From the sequence record NC_047820.1: a stretch of 50,800 bases of DNA. One strand, given 5' to 3'. A program made the translations under genes and the position numbers. The notes under the pieces were generated by a model, which was not told where the DNA came from, made no database searches, and worked only from the letters and a program-made list of their open reading frames with translations. Source of the stretch: Escherichia phage vB_EcoS_ESCO41. Positions 6,686 through 41,071 of the stretch are shown here, one piece after another (the stretch's first letter is position 1; every line of letters starts with the position of its first letter).

Positions 6686-6925
6686 ATGTTTGGATTAACC
6701 GATCCGCAGATGAACGCAGTAAAGGCCAAGGCCAAGCAATTAAACGCAGCGTATGCCACCCTAAGCAAGAAAGATCGCAAAGATGATAAGCTGGTTGCCT
6801 CAATTATTACCAAGCACCATGATGCCGTAGCGACCATTATATCGCGATCGCGTTTTATATGGATTGCAGGGTACATAGAGGGGAGGTGCGGAAAGCGTGA
6901 AAATGGGGAAAGTATCTATGAGTAA
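6686..6925 (+). CDS. hypothetical protein (79 aa)
   Basis: ORF immediately after previous stop. Confidence 0.45.
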   Translation: MFGLTDPQMNAVKAKAKQLNAAYATLSKKDRKDDKLVASIITKHHDAVATIISRSRFIWIAGYIEGRCGKRENGESIYE

Positions 6926-7112
6926 GATCAAGAAGGGTGACGTGATCAAGTGTATCGGCGCGCGCGGTTATGAGTTCTTTAATGGCTGCGAGTACACAGT
7001 GGAAAAAGTTGATTCCCAGGGATACGTTTATGTCTACAGCGACGAGGGGAACAAGGTCGCGATCGACTACCCTGTTTGCCAGACGTATGGAACTTTTAAA
7101 AAAGTTGATTGA
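6897..7112 (+). CDS. hypothetical protein; likelier start ATG 6918
   Basis: ORF-track frame; the ATG at 6918 has a GGGGAAAG RBS-like sequence. Confidence 0.4.
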   Translation: MKMGKVSMSKIKKGDVIKCIGARGYEFFNGCEYTVEKVDSQGYVYVYSDEGNKVAIDYPVCQTYGTFKKVD

Positions 7113-7137
7113 CAACCATCTCACTGACTGGTATCTT
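7109..7137 (+). promoter_or_regulatory. candidate sigma70 promoter TTGACA-N17-TATCTT upstream of tRNA genes
   Basis: -35 7109-7114, -10 7132-7137; weak -10. Confidence 0.3.
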
Positions 7138-7288
7138 TAATCTCGTAAACAGAAGAGGCCACCAAGTGGCAACGAGCGGTTCGTAATCCGCAAATTGAAA
7201 TAGCGCATCGCCAAAAGCAAAGTGTAAGTCGCAATACAATCGAGGCATTGTGAAAGCCTGCCGGATTCCGTAACCGGCCTTCATTTAA

Positions 7289-7366
7289 GCTCCGCTAGCT
7301 CAATTGGAAAGAAGCAACGACCTTCTAAGTCGTAGGTTACTGGTTCGAACCCAGTGCGGAGCGCCA
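7289..7366 (+). tRNA. tRNA-Arg (anticodon UCU)
   Basis: Acceptor GCTCCGC/GCGGAGC, anticodon stem ACGAC/GTCGT with loop CTTCTAA, T-arm ACTGG-TTCGAAC-CCAGT, encoded CCA; D-arm irregular. Confidence 0.75.
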
Positions 7367-7370
7367 ATTA

Positions 7371-7469
7371 CTCGGCGTTGCTAATATTGGCCTTAGGGTG
7401 GAGCTTATACCTCCATAAAGCAATCGACAGATAATCGATGTAATGCAGGTTCGATTCCTGCCGCCGAGA
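7371..7469 (+). tRNA. atypical tRNA-like gene (about 99 nt): anticodon-type loop CTTATAC (UAU) plus an extra 29-nt region with a second hairpin
   Basis: Acceptor CTCGGCG/CGCCGAG, T-arm GCAGG-TTCGATT-CCTGC, hairpins TGGAG-CTTATAC-CTCCA and ATCGA-CAGATAA-TCGAT; not a canonical class I or II fold. Confidence 0.4.
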
Positions 7470-7487
7470 CTAATAACGAGGTTTGAT

Positions 7488-7673
7488 ATGTTTGAGGTCA
7501 AGCTAACTATTTTGCTAATGGGGCGCACATGCGCATCTTGTAAGCAAAACTTTGAAGCAAAGGTTGAGGCCAGTAGCGCCGAAGAGGCCGTTTCAAAGGC
7601 AAAGAAAATGAGCGGAGTCGATACAACGACTCATAAATTTTTAGTTAATTATGTAAGGGGTATTTCATGCTGA
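7488..7673 (+). CDS. hypothetical protein (62 aa)
   Basis: ATG 7488 with RBS AACGAGG; the longer ORF-track start 7443 would overlap the tRNA-like gene. Confidence 0.4.
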   Translation: MFEVKLTILLMGRTCASCKQNFEAKVEASSAEEAVSKAKKMSGVDTTTHKFLVNYVRGISC

Positions 7674-7888
7674 CGTTTATTTATGGTTTTATTTTCGCTT
7701 TCGTCCTGATCATTTCGTTATCTTGCTCATGTGTAGCCAAGCTAATTAAGCGAGGTCAGTTCGCTCAAGCTCGATACGATGAGAAGAAAAAGCAGTGGCG
7801 CGTATCCGGCAAGTTTATCTCTGTGTTCAACGAGATTAACGACATTCGATCGGGGCGGAAGCCTGGGGCCATCAAATACGTTGACTGA
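7667..7888 (+). CDS. small membrane protein (73 aa)
   Basis: N-terminal hydrophobic segment FIYGFIFAFVLIISL. Confidence 0.4.
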   Translation: MLTFIYGFIFAFVLIISLSCSCVAKLIKRGQFAQARYDEKKKQWRVSGKFISVFNEINDIRSGRKPGAIKYVD

Positions 7889-7896
7889 TTCATTTA

Positions 7897-7921
7897 AGCA
7901 TCCTTTGGGGTGCTTTTTTTA
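7897..7921 (+). terminator. rho-independent terminator
   Basis: 7-bp stem AGCATCC/GGGGTGCT with G-U pair, then T7 run. Confidence 0.6.
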
Positions 7922-7932
7922 TGCCTGCAATC

Positions 7933-7941
7933 TGGTATAAT
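7933..7941 (+). promoter_or_regulatory. extended -10 element TGGTATAAT upstream of terminase genes
   Basis: Direct reading; no clear -35. Confidence 0.3.
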
Positions 7942-7970
7942 TCATTCCTATTCAACAAGGGGAAACAACT

Positions 7971-8489
7971 ATGAAAGACGAAAATTTCACCAGCCACGCG
8001 AACGAGAAGGTTCGAATCGGTAACTTCAAAGAGCTATACAATAAAAAGTATGGCGACATTGCCAACCTGAACCATCGTCACCCAATGACGCCTGAGACTG
8101 TATTCAACCTTGCGGTTAAATATTTCTCATGGGCCGAGGACCAGGCAATTAAGGCAATCGAAACGGCGAGCTTCCATGGTGTAGTTACTGAGAACCTAGT
8201 GCATAAGCCTCGCATTTTCACTTTAAACGGATTCTGCCTGTACTGCGGAGTTACAGCAAGCTCAATTCAGAGCTGGCGCGCATCACCTGGATTCGCGGAG
8301 GTAATGGAGTTCGTTGACTCTGTAATCCATGAGCAAAAATATCAGCTTGCTGCAGCCAATATCATCAATGCTGGGTTTGTAGGCAAGGAGATTGGAATCG
8401 ACAAGCCCGCCGAGGTCAACGTAAGTAATGTAGTGAATGATACTCAGACGATTGAGGATGCTGTGAAAAGCGTTCTTGATAAGATTTGA
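7971..8489 (+). CDS. putative terminase small subunit
   Basis: 172-aa ORF immediately upstream of the large terminase; assignment by position only. Confidence 0.45.
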   Translation: MKDENFTSHANEKVRIGNFKELYNKKYGDIANLNHRHPMTPETVFNLAVKYFSWAEDQAIKAIETASFHGVVTENLVHKPRIFTLNGFCLYCGVTASSIQSWRASPGFAEVMEFVDSVIHEQKYQLAAANIINAGFVGKEIGIDKPAEVNVSNVVNDTQTIEDAVKSVLDKI

Positions 8490-10186: not shown

Positions 10187-10735
10187 GTGAGATTCAGCGA
10201 TATTTTTACATACAAAAGCGGAGAGGTTTTCTGGAATGGAAGGCCAGAAAGTGATTTTAGTAAAATGAGTGCATATCACGCGTTTAATAGGATGGTTGGC
10301 AATACTGCTGGATACCTAGATAAATCAAACGGATACTGGTATGTGTGGATTACAATTGGCGGTATTGAAAAGAAAATACCACGATCACATATTGTGTGGT
10401 GTATTCACAATAATGCAGCCATCGTTCCAAAAGGGTTTGTTATTGATCATATAAACCACGTAAGAGATGATGATAGGATAGAAAACCTTGAACTTAAAAG
10501 CTATAGAGGAAACAACAGAAACCTTTCAATATCAAAAAGGAATAAAAGCGGTTGCGTAGGTGTTACATGGTATTCTCGCGATGAAATGTGGATGGCTTGC
10601 ATAATGGGTGATGACGGAAAGAACAAAAATCTTGGCAGGTATAATGACTGGTTTGATGCGGTTTGCGCAAGGAAGAGCGCGGAGCATGAGATTGGGTATC
10701 ACACAAACCACGGCAAGGATAGCGAGAATTGCTAA
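10187..10735 (+). CDS. HNH homing endonuclease (GTG start)
   Basis: IDHINHVRDDDRIENLEL matches the HNH/AP2-type motif; paralogous to 12823 and 40179 genes. Confidence 0.75.
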   Translation: MRFSDIFTYKSGEVFWNGRPESDFSKMSAYHAFNRMVGNTAGYLDKSNGYWYVWITIGGIEKKIPRSHIVWCIHNNAAIVPKGFVIDHINHVRDDDRIENLELKSYRGNNRNLSISKRNKSGCVGVTWYSRDEMWMACIMGDDGKNKNLGRYNDWFDAVCARKSAEHEIGYHTNHGKDSENC

Positions 10736-12822: not shown

Positions 12823-13305
12823 ATGAATTTCAATGATTATTTTTATCATGTAGGAAAAGATCTCATCTGGAAAAATCCGACATCAGCAAGGGTTAAGGCT
12901 GGCGATATTGCTGGATGGAAGGATGAGGATGGATATATTTACGTTAGGATTATGGGTAGGCTAACTCCAGCCCATAGGGTAATATGGGAGATGCACCATG
13001 GCAAAATACCTGAAGGTATGGAGATTGATCATATAAACCACATCACGGATGATAACAGGATCGAAAACTTAAGGCTCGTAACCAGGCAAGAGAACTGCAA
13101 AAACGTCTCGATGAGTAAGTCAAACAAAAGCGGATTTGTCGGGGTTAGTTGGTGTAAGAGAACGAGCAAATGGTTTGCTTCAATAAGGGTGGACAAAAAG
13201 GAGCGGTTCCTTGGTAGATACGATATAAAAGATGACGCTGTGTACGCAAGAAAGGATGCAGAGACGAAATATAATTTTCACAAAAATCACGGGAGTAAAA
13301 AATGA
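12823..13305 (+). CDS. HNH homing endonuclease
   Basis: IDHINHITDDNRIENLRL motif; inserted between head genes. Confidence 0.75.
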   Translation: MNFNDYFYHVGKDLIWKNPTSARVKAGDIAGWKDEDGYIYVRIMGRLTPAHRVIWEMHHGKIPEGMEIDHINHITDDNRIENLRLVTRQENCKNVSMSKSNKSGFVGVSWCKRTSKWFASIRVDKKERFLGRYDIKDDAVYARKDAETKYNFHKNHGSKK

Positions 13306-38060: not shown

Positions 38061-39242
38061 ATGTTGCCTATCGAGAAGTTGGTTGCGAACTTCGATAAAG
38101 AAAGAATCAAACAAATTCAGAGAGATTATCAGTTTGGCGAGATAACCCCTTACGAATTCCAGTGCGTTACATTTGATGCAATTGGAAAGGCTATTGGGAA
38201 GTATGAGGCCCCATTTATAGCAGACCTTTCCGTTTCTGCGGGTAAGACAATTATTCTTGCCATGATTGGTAAGCGCATGGAGCAATTAGGGTTGCCTTAT
38301 ATGGTTCTTTCTCGCCAGTCAGAGATAATCAGCCAGAACTCAGAAGAGCTCCGTAATTTCGGTATCCGTAACAGCGTATATTGCGCTGGCCTTAACGTTA
38401 AATCAGTTTACTACCCAACCATAGTGGCTAGTGAGGGTACGGCAGCCAATGGCTTATTTAAGGGGCTTGGTGACTATGTTCCTGCGGTTATCGCTATAGA
38501 TGAATGTCACATGCTTGATACCATAGATATTGTGGAAGCCGAAGAGAATGAAGAAACATTTGAGCAAATGAGCACAAAGAAAGGCGAGATGGTTTTTAAG
38601 GATGGCGTTAATACTGGATTGCTTGGTACTGGTCGTGCGCAGTACACGCTAATAATCACTGAGATGAAGCGTCGCTGCCGTGAAAAATACGGGCGGGAGC
38701 TTCGTATATTCGGCCTTACTGGTAGCCCTTATCGAAACAATGACCATATCGTCGTTAGCAATCCAAACATCCGTGGGTTCTGGCGAAAAACTGTGATTCA
38801 GGTTCCAACAAATTACCTTGTTGATTTGGGATTCGTGGTTCCTACTGTTTATGGCGAGGTTGGCGATTTAGGTTATGACCTTAGCGAGTTTGAGCCTGAC
38901 GGAAGCGATGGTGTGAAAGATTTCAGCAAGAAAGAAATGGATGCGATGGCTGCAAAGATTCACGACAATCAGTCAATGACTCAAAAAATAATGGGGTTTG
39001 TTGTAAAAATACTAGAGACTCGTAACGCCGCGCTGGTTACATGCGCTGGCAAGTTGCACTGCAGTGAAGCGGCTGCCGCACTGCCTGATGGATACCCTTA
39101 CGCAATCATTACTGATTCTACTGGCGAGAAAAAACGACGTGAGATTCTATCTGATTGCCAGACAGGTAAGTACAAAATAATATTCCAAATTGGGTGTCTA
39201 ACTACGGGCGTTTCGGTCCCGCCCTTACGCAATCATTACTGA
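38061..39242 (+). CDS. SF2 helicase, N-terminal part (reading frame broken by 127-bp tandem duplication)
   Basis: Walker A SVSAGKTI, DEAD-box-like AIDECHM; ORF stops 21 nt into the second repeat copy. Confidence 0.65.
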   Translation: MLPIEKLVANFDKERIKQIQRDYQFGEITPYEFQCVTFDAIGKAIGKYEAPFIADLSVSAGKTIILAMIGKRMEQLGLPYMVLSRQSEIISQNSEELRNFGIRNSVYCAGLNVKSVYYPTIVASEGTAANGLFKGLGDYVPAVIAIDECHMLDTIDIVEAEENEETFEQMSTKKGEMVFKDGVNTGLLGTGRAQYTLIITEMKRRCREKYGRELRIFGLTGSPYRNNDHIVVSNPNIRGFWRKTVIQVPTNYLVDLGFVVPTVYGEVGDLGYDLSEFEPDGSDGVKDFSKKEMDAMAAKIHDNQSMTQKIMGFVVKILETRNAALVTCAGKLHCSEAAAALPDGYPYAIITDSTGEKKRREILSDCQTGKYKIIFQIGCLTTGVSVPPLRNHY

Positions 39243-39348
39243 TTCTACTGGCGAGAAAAAACGACGTGAGATTCTATCTGATTGCCAGACAGGTAAGTAC
39301 AAAATAATATTCCAAATTGGGTGTCTAACTACGGGCGTTTCGGTCCCG
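39095..39348 (+). repeat. perfect tandem duplication, 2 x 127 bp (39095-39221 and 39222-39348), inside the helicase gene
   Basis: Base-by-base comparison; 127 is not a multiple of 3; deleting one copy restores a single ORF 38061..40182. Confidence 0.85.
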
Positions 39349-39369
39349 CCGTGGGACACAAGCGTTGTA

Positions 39370-40182
39370 TTGAGAAAGATTGGTAGCTTAACTCTCATGA
39401 TTCAGCTTCTTGGGCGAGGCATGCGAATTCTAAAGAAAAAGCATATAGAAATGGGGATGAAAAAAGATGATCACCTTGTTCTAGACTTCGCCGGCGCACT
39501 TGACGATATGGCCGAACTTTACTTTGACCCAATCATTGAAGAAATTCAGGCTGAGAAGTTCAAGTCCTCAAGGAAAGGTGGTGATGAGGTCCGGCAGTGC
39601 CCGCAGTGTGGATATGAGAACTCACCATTTGCTCGACGCTGTAGCAACAAGATTGATGGAAAGCGCTGTGAGCACTTTTTCAGCTTTACGGTTTGTGAAG
39701 ATATTACTGACCCACAAACAAAGTCCGTCATCAAGAAAGGTTGCGGTACTCGCAACGACATAGCAGCAAAGGTTTGTCGTGAATGCGGAGAAATGCTTAA
39801 AGACCCTAATGCTAATCTAACCGGTAAGATGTATCGTCGTGGTGATTACCTCCGAGTTTATGATTTTCAAGTTGGTTTAAGTAAGAACCAGACTGGAATA
39901 GTTGTTAAATACAACATCATGGCGCATAACGGAGAGCGGTTTAATGCTTGGGAGTTCTTTAATCCAGAATCAGACCATCGAGTTTGCAGCGTGCTTTGGA
40001 AAAATTTCTGCCTATCCCATATTGAGAATCGCACAGAAGCAGCACGAATTGCTAAACTTCGCAGCGCAAAAATGATTATGATGAACGTAGATAAATTCCG
40101 TGCTCCTGTGCAGGTAACTCACAGAAAGAATGGCAAAGGAAAGGACATAATAGCTTTTAAGAATTTTGGAGAATTATTATGA
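39370..40182 (+). CDS. SF2 helicase, C-terminal part (motif VI plus Cys-rich zinc-finger-like region); possibly a pseudogene fragment
   Basis: QLLGRGMR helicase motif VI; CPQCG..RRCSNK..CEHF and CGTRND..CRECG; frame continuous with upstream ORF if one repeat copy is removed. Confidence 0.55.
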   Translation: MRKIGSLTLMIQLLGRGMRILKKKHIEMGMKKDDHLVLDFAGALDDMAELYFDPIIEEIQAEKFKSSRKGGDEVRQCPQCGYENSPFARRCSNKIDGKRCEHFFSFTVCEDITDPQTKSVIKKGCGTRNDIAAKVCRECGEMLKDPNANLTGKMYRRGDYLRVYDFQVGLSKNQTGIVVKYNIMAHNGERFNAWEFFNPESDHRVCSVLWKNFCLSHIENRTEAARIAKLRSAKMIMMNVDKFRAPVQVTHRKNGKGKDIIAFKNFGELL

Positions 40183-40655
40183 ATTGGAATGAGTGTTTTT
40201 ACTATGACAATGGCGTTTTGAGGTGGAAAATCCGCAGGGCTAATTGCGTTAAAATTGGTGACGAGGTCGGATTTAAACACGAGAGAGAGGGTTATAGGTT
40301 TTTCTGTAGGGACAGAAAACAATACTCTACACACAGAGTAATATGGGAAATGTTTTACGGACCAATACCGAAGGGCATGGAGATAGATCACATTAATCAC
40401 GTTAGGGATGACAATAGAATAGAAAACCTTAGACTTGTAAGTAAGCAATCAAATATGGAGAACAAATCGAAATACAAGAACAACAAAAGCGGATTTACTG
40501 GAGTGAGCTTCGAAAGTAAGTCTGGTCGGTGGTCTGTGAGTGTTGGGTCAAAAAGATACGGAAGATTCGATAACATCGAGCACGCAAAAATATGCGCAAT
40601 GATAGTTAGGGCTGAACTTGGATACCACGATAACCATGGGGATTATTTCCAGTGA
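40179..40655 (+). CDS. HNH homing endonuclease
   Basis: IDHINHVRDDNRIENLRL motif; paralog of 10187 and 12823 genes. Confidence 0.75.
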   Translation: MNWNECFYYDNGVLRWKIRRANCVKIGDEVGFKHEREGYRFFCRDRKQYSTHRVIWEMFYGPIPKGMEIDHINHVRDDNRIENLRLVSKQSNMENKSKYKNNKSGFTGVSFESKSGRWSVSVGSKRYGRFDNIEHAKICAMIVRAELGYHDNHGDYFQ

Positions 40656-41071
40656 ATATTACAGATAAGGTTGATTACATTGAGTTTTACCCGGGCCCTG
40701 TTAAATCATGCCCAAAGGAGGATGACGAACAAATATTTTGCTCTGATTGGGTTAAGTATAACTATCCAGAGATGGTATTTTTCCACTGCGTGAATGAGGG
40801 TAAGAAAACCATTGGACAAGCAAGAAAGGACCAGGCTAAAGGATTGCTTAAGGGGGTTTCGGACTGCTTATTCCTGATGCCTGAATCGCTGCGTGGCAAA
40901 TACCCTTTCGGTGCCATAGAGCTAAAGAGAGCAGGAAAAACCCAAGCAAGCCCAGTCAGTGACGAACAGAAGTCATTCCTTAAAAGCGTAAGGGAATCAG
41001 GAGGTTTTGCTGGGGTTGCCTACGGGCGTGAAGGTTTTCTTGCGGCATTTAAAGAGATGATTTCAAAATAG
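40652..41071 (+). CDS. VRR-NUC-like nuclease domain protein (putative)
   Basis: PD-(D/E)xK-like pattern around ..FLMPE..GAIELKRAGK..; low-certainty motif reading. Confidence 0.4.
   Translation: MNITDKVDYIEFYPGPVKSCPKEDDEQIFCSDWVKYNYPEMVFFHCVNEGKKTIGQARKDQAKGLLKGVSDCLFLMPESLRGKYPFGAIELKRAGKTQASPVSDEQKSFLKSVRESGGFAGVAYGREGFLAAFKEMISK

Follow-up and report, generated by a model that had tools for sequence, protein, structure and literature searches.

A tRNA-Arg(UCU) gene of a T1-like coliphage is half of an optional cassette whose other half is a 102-nt, dual-hairpin tRNA-Ile-like RNA

What does a T1-like coliphage gain from a transfer RNA (tRNA) gene of its own? The question is raised by positions 7289 to 7366 of Escherichia phage vB_EcoS_ESCO41 (NC_047820.1), whose 50,800 nucleotides (nt) were analysed in full and are called the window here. 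The initial annotation of this DNA placed a tRNA-Arg(UCU) gene at these positions, described the phage as virulent and proposed that the tRNA supplements the decoding of a codon that is rare in the host. We found that the gene is half of a two-gene optional cassette, the other half, overlooked in that annotation, being a 102-nt RNA that resembles tRNA-Ile and carries two anticodon-type hairpins (Table 1). The reading that we favour, and hold to be somewhat more probable than its negation, is that 7278-7472 serves as an optional rare-codon cassette for AGA and AGG (together, AGR) and AUA, in which the tRNA-Arg would read AGR while the 102-nt RNA would be charged by way of its second hairpin and decode AUA by way of its first.

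For the tRNA-Arg gene, both the coordinates and the identity proposed by the initial annotation were exact. ARAGORN, run on the whole window, made a single tRNA call, this gene with anticodon TCT on the + strand, and the Rfam tRNA family (RF00005) matched it at full length, over model positions 1-71 and window positions 7289-7363, with 57.7 bits (gathering score 29; E = 6e-10). It has CUUCUAA as its anticodon loop and G73 as its discriminator, and its D stem contains either an extra nucleotide or a mismatch at 13-22. All of the bacterial arginyl-tRNA synthetase (ArgRS) identity nucleotides, A20, C35, U/G36 and A/G73 (Giegé & Eriani 2023, PMC9976931), were found in the phage sequence. When compared with argU of E. 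coli K-12, 61/78 positions are identical (78%), including A20, C35, U36 and G73 and a 21-nt stretch, AGCAACGACCTTCTAAGTCGT, that spans the entire anticodon stem-loop (17 nt); the acceptor and T stems are different, and the D stem of the phage gene is one nucleotide longer. A tRNA-Arg gene at this similarity (~80%) is present in 5422/5426 complete E. coli genomes, and homologous full-length genes, most of them annotated as tRNA-Arg, occur in 178 phage records at 80-95% identity. The anticodon and cloverleaf are the same in the tRNA-Arg(UCU) of T1-like, Dhillonvirus-like and T4-like phages (T4, ETEP102, CEB_EC3a and the BASEL Drexlerviridae), and in other T1-like phages the gene sits in the same place, upstream of the small terminase gene, with no essential difference. 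By itself, the tRNA-Arg is real, ordinary and already known, and the copy here is a new allele of a known gene.

The window is the complete 50.8-kb genome of a T1-like siphophage of E. coli (Drexlerviridae, near Nouzillyvirus), and its best matches are Drexlerviridae/Nouzillyvirus phages at ~92% identity; identity to such coliphages, among them vB_EcoM-p111 (p111), runs at ~88-93%. Junction sequences and a local BLAST of the window against p111 showed that the p111 flanks join directly where the window has 7278-7469, and p111, the closest relative, has no tRNA gene at all. The nearest relatives lack the tRNA-Arg, which was verified for p111. None of the twelve closest relatives other than ETEP102 appears in the complete list of records with the second RNA. 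One explanation for a tRNA gene at such a site is that it is the relic of an integration site, with a phage attachment site (attP) overlapping the tRNA; in E. coli argU serves as an attachment site for prophages, and in K-12 it lies directly beside the cryptic prophage DLP12 and the integrase of that prophage. We rejected this explanation as very improbable. No integrase was found among the 20 large window open reading frames (ORFs) tested against Pfam or among the 75 annotated coding sequences (CDS) of p111, and the phage gene is a full-length tRNA, not a 3' fragment, with full-length homologs in the many phage records noted above. The same lack of an integrase in both sets is consistent with the description of the phage as virulent.

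The second RNA is largely hidden from standard detectors. In the whole-window run ARAGORN called neither a tRNA nor a transfer-messenger RNA (tmRNA) at 7371-7472, and the Rfam tRNA model gave only a local match of 26 bits, under its gathering score, to an RNA that has five helices. Other family members gave matches of 23-25 bits to the tRNA or tmRNA models over the acceptor and T arm; for tmRNA (RF00023) the threshold is 47 bits, and the acceptor and T arm alone align. By BLAST, the RNA was found in 23 phage records from unrelated groups, namely Drexlerviridae, CEB_EC3a-like phages, Autographiviridae, Schitoviridae, Ounavirinae, Stephanstirmvirinae, 128-kb Vibrio phages and a 309-kb Xanthomonas jumbo phage. 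In GenBank the homologs of PCEc3, 12VC501, PhiM1 and WD615 are annotated as a "tRNA-Ile" of 98-102 nt, and in many other records the homolog is unannotated or overlain by a hypothetical CDS. In the Pectobacterium phage PhiM1 (Autographiviridae) it is the sole tRNA-like gene. Two degenerate-pattern scans of IMG/VR brought the family to a total of 47 distinct sequences, 101-104 nt long, and the pattern had one match in 100,044 bacterial and archaeal species genomes, on an Actinobacillus contig that matches the IMG/VR lineage of L024, L025 and L031. The family is conserved and phage-restricted. No description of it was found in the searchable literature, the coverage of which is incomplete, so that this is absence of evidence only. 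We regard the 102-nt RNA as a new structural variant of tRNA that lies outside Rfam and is inconsistently annotated.

Members of the family share a tRNA-like end, made up of an acceptor of 7 bp, a T arm of 5 bp whose loop is GTTCGATT, a discriminator that is A in all 47 members and a CCA 3' end in 46/47. Selection on the structure is seen in a 27-sequence alignment, where compensatory changes affect 7/7 pairs of the acceptor, 4/5 of hairpin 1, 4/5 of hairpin 2 and 3/5 of the T arm. Paired cells make up 95% of this alignment, compared with 72% in shuffles and 34-45% with slid partners, and RNAalifold independently recovers the same four helices. One family member is interrupted: at 1063-1750 of IMG/VR UViG_3300033074_000142 (L007) the gene is split inside the hairpin 2 loop, after CCAGA, by an insert of ~620 bp that carries a tRNA-Met(CAT) gene and an HNH-like ORF with CxxC...HxxxH/CPNCH motifs, after which the T arm and acceptor resume. 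Rfam found no intron family in this insertion, which looks like a mobile endonuclease cassette within the 102-nt-RNA gene.

The two internal hairpins are where the RNA departs from any ordinary tRNA. The loop of hairpin 1 reads YUUAUAN in 47/47 members, also in a search made without a loop constraint; all of them have the 7 nt, U33 and purine 37 of a canonical decoding loop, and with U33, the UAU and A37 fixed and position 38 free, the conservation pattern is, as judged from the sequences, that of an anticodon loop predicted to read AUA. The loop of hairpin 2 reads YAGAUAA in 47/47, again also without a loop constraint, and it departs from the canonical form by its A33. U33 is near-universal in tRNA anticodon loops. 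What hairpin 2 does offer is a set of determinants for isoleucyl-tRNA synthetase (IleRS). The bacterial identity set consists of A73, G34 A35 U36 A37 A38, C29-G41, U12-A23 and C4-G69 (PMC9976931), of which A73, the G34-A35-U36-A37-A38 of hairpin 2 and, in the fold that uses hairpin 2 as anticodon arm, U12-A23 are invariant in the family; C29-G41 is present in 27/27 of the first set, including all enterobacterial phages. Across the family the full-length RNA is essentially never called by ARAGORN. When hairpin 1 and the linker were deleted in silico, leaving 76 nt, ARAGORN called a tRNA-Ile(GAU) in 45/47 members, and when hairpin 2 was deleted instead, leaving ~80 nt, it called a tRNA-Ile(UAU) in 47/47.

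Two cloverleaves can be drawn on one acceptor and T domain. The GAU cloverleaf has a D stem of G10-C, C11-G and U12-A, formed with an AGC at 7419-7421 that never varies, and hairpin 1 is then inserted at position 20 of the D loop. For the UAU cloverleaf G10-C11-U12 pairs with the linker AG at 7395-7396 (conserved in 46/47), giving a D stem of two conserved pairs, a G-G mismatch and a variable fourth pair, and hairpin 2 becomes a long variable arm that can be read as a class II arm. We know of no tRNA-Ile that belongs to class II. Covariation cannot choose between the two folds because the candidate D-region partners are all invariant, and average nearest-neighbour energies (-25.2 kcal/mol for GAU and -24.8 kcal/mol for UAU) do not separate them; the energies favour a third fold, a mini D hairpin that takes no account of tertiary contacts. 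We rejected a class I reading with a GCTT/AAGC D arm, taken from the Rfam local alignment, as those bases covary with hairpin 1 partners. Canonical-length relatives with the same D-loop signature and one hairpin fewer, from which the inserted hairpin might have been told, were not found, one search returning 5 chance non-tRNA matches and the other 0.

A simple account would be that the RNA is a plain tRNA-Ile(GAU) that reads AUY codons through hairpin 2, with hairpin 1 a non-decoding expansion of the D loop (position 20) that could offer a handle for protein binding, stabilise the RNA or act as a decoy. Every spacing in the GAU cloverleaf is canonical (U8, A14, G18 G19, A21, A26, a 5-bp stem, a 5-nt variable loop and A73), G10-C25, C11-G24 and U12-A23 are invariant, the Rfam tRNA model takes hairpin 2 for the anticodon arm, and some GenBank records, as noted, annotate homologs as tRNA-Ile. 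We nevertheless consider this account unlikely. A33 is invariant in all 47 members, while a neighbouring canonical tRNA-Ile(GAU) in WD615 has U33; AUY codons are not limiting in E. coli; the loop of hairpin 1 is conserved in the way that a decoding loop is; and the linker AG that would form the alternative D stem has no role in the GAU fold. Moreover, several carriers already own a canonical tRNA-Ile(GAU) with U33, and because the two co-occur in L009, Vibrio phage Pylo and WD615, the 102-nt RNA is not a redundant GAU isoacceptor.

The RNA often has an AGR-reading tRNA-Arg as its neighbour. The two adjoin in at least 12 loci, the anticodon of the tRNA-Arg being UCU or, in Opt-79 and L032, CCU; either gene may come first, and the phages concerned belong to unrelated groups. 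In two independent records of an Actinobacillus/Pasteurellaceae-type lineage (L025 3445-3520 and L039 2947-3022), the same tRNA-Arg(UCU) sequence follows the long Ile-like RNA; ARAGORN reports it with a 4-nt anticodon, "ctaa", because of an A30-C40 mismatch in the anticodon stem. We considered these two as odd relatives of the family and discarded them, since each is an ordinary tRNA-Arg(UCU) gene apart from a single mismatch in a stem. Metagenomic phage contigs also gave two long tRNA calls close to family members, a 95-nt tRNA-His (L030 4951-5045) and a 99-nt tRNA-Arg(CCT) (L029 3645-3743). Neither is of the same design, their long variable regions being unstructured and lacking dual hairpins.

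To examine the codon load we set 82 called phage ORFs (15,590 codons) against 42 annotated genes of K-12 (14,748 codons) and against a further host set of 28 genes of ribosomal-protein operons. AGA makes up 15.1% of Arg codons in the phage and 2.3% in the E. coli sample (Fisher p = 3e-21), a 5.6-fold difference per 1000 codons (7.3 vs 1.2), and AGG makes up 13.9% and 1.3%, respectively (p = 5e-24; 8.8-fold per 1000 codons, 6.7 vs 0.7). AUA accounts for 16.4% of Ile codons in the phage and 4.2% in the sample (p = 3e-19; 4.5-fold per 1000 codons). No other codon is as strongly enriched in the phage as AGG, AGA and AUA, and these are exactly the three that the host most avoids relative to it. The comparison of AGA and AGG usage with the presumed host, which the initial annotation had put forward as the way to check its proposal, therefore showed enrichment and did not refute it.

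On the reading we favour, host RNA polymerase would transcribe from 7109-7137 through the leader, the tRNA-Arg, the 102-nt RNA and two small ORFs to the hairpin at 7896-7915, and both RNAs would be cut from this transcript like any tRNA. The tRNA-Arg(UCU), with its ArgRS identity elements and argU-identical anticodon stem-loop, would be charged and add capacity for AGA and, through wobble, for AGG. Host IleRS would charge the 102-nt RNA with isoleucine through hairpin 2, and the UAU loop of hairpin 1 would supply AUA decoding. This arrangement may bypass a known obstacle, as E. coli IleRS charges tRNA with a UAU anticodon poorly (Taniguchi et al. 2013, PMC3575796). The main beneficiaries would probably be accessory genes with many such codons (HNH homing endonucleases, tail-fibre and replication genes) and not the major structural genes.

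Several observations weigh against this reading, beginning with the codons themselves. The tRNA-less p111 uses AGA at 11.8%, AGG at 15.6% and AUA at 16.0%, nearly the same load; the window does not stand clearly above it, being higher for AGA and lower for AGG, and because of this near-identical usage, enrichment fails to separate carriers from non-carriers. Both the tRNA and the cassette as a whole are dispensable, and codon load is no predictor of carriage. Base composition predicts 20-21% for AGA, 17-23% for AGG and 29-35% for AUA, and the phage shares are lower, and therefore represent relaxed avoidance and not positive enrichment. The genes for the major capsid, decoration and major tail proteins and the small terminase subunit (TerS) have 0/25 AGR and 0/62 AUA (P = 4e-4 and 1e-5), so the highly expressed late genes are not where these codons are concentrated. 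Their opposite is found in three HNH homing endonucleases, where AGR accounts for 34/39 Arg codons (87%) and AUA for 16/36 Ile codons. The proposal of rare-codon supplementation thus stands in part: the tRNA is real and AGA and AGG are enriched relative to the host, but the load is equal in p111, the structural genes do without AGR and the shares fall below composition. If the tRNA-Arg helps at all, its beneficiaries are accessory and mobile genes, and this type of phage can do without it.

The 102-nt RNA brings difficulties of its own. With E. coli ribosomes, an unmodified UAU anticodon reads not only AUA but AUG as well (Taniguchi et al. 2013, PMC3575796), and hairpin 1 mostly has C38, unlike the U36-A37-A38 context of N6-threonylcarbamoyladenosine (t6A) substrates. 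A hairpin that leaves the D loop, as hairpin 1 does in the GAU cloverleaf, is out of reach of the decoding centre, and IleRS does not expect an anticodon at the variable arm, the place of hairpin 2 in the UAU cloverleaf. The geometry of the proposed division of labour is therefore a problem still to be solved and, together with the p111 comparison, the chief objection to the favoured reading. Two of the IleRS determinants are also less than universal, with C29-G41 becoming G29-C41 in an environmental subfamily with a UAGAUAA loop and C4-G69 present in only 12/27 sequences. Lastly, the RNA of the window ends in ACUA (CTA at 7470-7472), while the otherwise identical copy of ETEP102 ends in ACCA. 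The ACUA end might stem from a point mutation, from a scar left by recombination or from an error in sequencing. The p111 junction at the equivalent place reads CCTAAC.

The RNA might also switch conformation. In such a "two-in-one" tRNA, which we put forward tentatively and think less probable than not by a wide measure, two isoleucine cloverleaves would alternate on one acceptor/T domain by sharing the D strand G10-C11-U12. Pairing of this strand with the AGC at 7419-7421 would give the GAU cloverleaf for IleRS, and pairing with the AG at 7395-7396 would give the UAU cloverleaf for decoding; charging would take place in one conformation or through the GAU arm, AUA would be decoded through the UAU arm, and A33, being invariant, would stop the identity arm from taking part in decoding.

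Known AUA readers solve the same presumed task differently. The canonical decoders, T4 tRNA-Ile and bacterial tRNA-Ile2, have a CAU anticodon that is converted to lysidine. T4 tRNA-Ile likewise lies in the same tRNA cluster as a tRNA-Arg(UCU), but it is a canonical 74-nt tRNA with CAU and depends on host TilS, whereas the 102-nt RNA has UAU and an extra GAU-type hairpin. The tRNA-Ile2(UAU) of Mycoplasma mobile, which uses unmodified UAU for AUA, has the anticodon of hairpin 1 (PMC3575796); there the synthetase has changed (Arg865) to accept UAU, while the phage RNA seems to carry a GAU-type arm for an unchanged IleRS. The position of hairpin 2 in the UAU cloverleaf is that of the variable arm of class II tRNAs (Leu, Ser, Tyr) and of long-variable-arm allo-tRNAs (PMC5389517), and a variable arm can serve as an identity element. 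Unlike class II arms, hairpin 2 has an invariant 7-nt loop that copies an anticodon loop, and the acceptor and T arm are an ordinary 7/5. An analogous arrangement is found in T4, where rnaC and rnaD (the species 1 and 2 stable RNAs; L038 909-1248) come directly after tRNA-Arg(UCU) in the tRNA cluster. rnaC has a tRNA-like T arm, as the 102-nt RNA does, but the two T4 RNAs are of other sizes than the phage RNA here (119 and 139 nt), and we rejected them as homologs since no sequence similarity was seen in a comparison by eye.

Phage tRNAs could also be there for reasons other than codons. They may replace or outlast host tRNAs that are cut by tRNA-targeting immune nucleases, and phage tRNAs are reported to rescue infection from PARIS, retron effectors and other tRNases (PMC11464382, PMC11555353, PMC10264068). 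Host tRNA-Arg is among the tRNAs that retron Eco2 cleaves (PMC12916289). The cassette is an accessory element, patchy among close relatives, as arms-race genes would be, and the invariant A33 of hairpin 2, which does differ from U33, is the type of anticodon-loop change proposed to block anticodon nucleases (PMC10264068). Such a counter-defence role, though plausible as a general matter, is in our view improbable here, if by no means negligible. The anticodon stem-loop of the tRNA-Arg is the same as in argU, with which its 21-nt identity extends into the flanks, and because of this the tRNA-Arg offers no sequence-based nuclease escape, its loop being no different from that of the host isoacceptor. 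A defence system directed specifically at tRNA-Arg(UCU) or tRNA-Ile was not identified in this analysis, and the recurrent pairing of AGR and AUA readers, which matches the three most host-avoided codons, fits codon logic better.

It is also conceivable that the cassette is a near-neutral passenger, in other words a tRNA module, mobile or prone to recombination, that persists through linkage and matters little to this phage, and that the 102-nt RNA of the window is already decaying. Its absence from p111 is accompanied by no visible change in codon usage, the window copy is the sole one of 47 without an encoded CCA, and the L007 member is disrupted by the insertion described above. The lack of CCA by itself need not be disabling, as E. 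coli can mature tRNAs whose genes lack a CCA, some T4 tRNAs among them; the T4 tRNA-Ile gene is found to encode none. The window copy is otherwise identical to that of ETEP102, and in 47 lineages of unrelated phage families purifying selection acts strongly on both structure and loops, which shows that the family as a whole is functional. We judge the passenger explanation to have a small chance of being right, possible for the window copy and not for the family.

The promoter-like site at 7109-7137 is the only one of its kind in 6800-8000; a similar element lies upstream in PCEc3, and ETEP102 has an annotated promoter at the equivalent position. This putative promoter is the presumed start of a transcript carrying both RNAs. 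The leader folds no better than shuffled sequence (z = -1.1) and has no Rfam match, and on these grounds we rejected a structured RNA or a decayed tRNA. Within it lie a T-arm-like motif (GAGCGGTTCGTAATCCGC) and a CCGG-ATTCCGTAA-CCGG hairpin; PCEc3 has this hairpin as well, upstream of its tRNA. Gene order in the window is T1-like, running from early genes to the small and large terminase subunits, portal, capsid, tail and then replication and lysis genes, and the sequence is identical to IMG/VR contig UViG_2974610512_000001. The three HNH_3 homing-endonuclease genes lie at 10187-10735, 12823-13305 and 40179-40655, the second and third within segments that do not align to p111. Around the third, the helicase region (38061-41071) is broken into several ORFs, whereas the helicase of p111 is a single 2.1-kb gene.

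Table 1. Features in and around the cassette, in window coordinates.
Feature	Position	Strand	Remarks
Promoter-like site, sigma-70 type	7109-7137	+	TTGACA-17 nt-TATCTT with TG upstream; 10/12 consensus matches
Non-coding leader, ~145 nt	7144-7288	+	Kept in cassette-less p111
Optional tRNA cassette, 192 bp	7278-7469	+	In window and ETEP102; absent from p111
tRNA-Arg(UCU)	7289-7366	+	Anticodon 7324-7326; A20, C35, U36, G73 present; CCA encoded at 7364-7366
Second RNA, 102-nt dual-hairpin tRNA-Ile-like	7371-7472	+	Starts 4 nt downstream of tRNA-Arg; acceptor 7371-7377 paired with 7462-7468; T arm 7445-7461; A73 at 7469; tail 7470-7472
Hairpin 1, TGGAG-CUUAUAC-CTCCA	7399-7415	+	Canonical anticodon-type loop: U33, UAU at 7406-7408, A37
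Hairpin 2, ATCGA-CAGAUAA-TCGAT	7423-7439	+	tRNA-Ile(GAU) loop: GAU at 7430-7432, A37, A38, but A33
Two small ORFs	7488-7673, 7667-7888	+	Probably co-transcribed with the RNAs; homologous CDS annotated in p111 and ETEP102
Terminator-like hairpin	7896-7915		Followed by the genes for TerS and the large terminase subunit (TerL)

For phage biology, the tRNA-Arg is a cautionary case, in that the popular "codon enrichment" test is passed despite a tRNA-less sibling and despite codon avoidance in the most expressed genes. The 102-nt RNA reaches further. Phage tRNA censuses under-count its family whichever reading is right, and standard detectors miss the members or give them inconsistent labels. If the RNA is charged and used in translation, it would show that two arms of one tRNA can divide identity and decoding between them, and it would bear on how far synthetases and ribosomes tolerate non-canonical tRNAs, on the reading of AUA without lysidine and on tRNA engineering. 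Should the conformational switch prove true, this would be a phage way to read AUA with neither TilS nor lysidine and with an unchanged IleRS, and the first natural tRNA to have identity and decoding on two separate anticodon-type arms.

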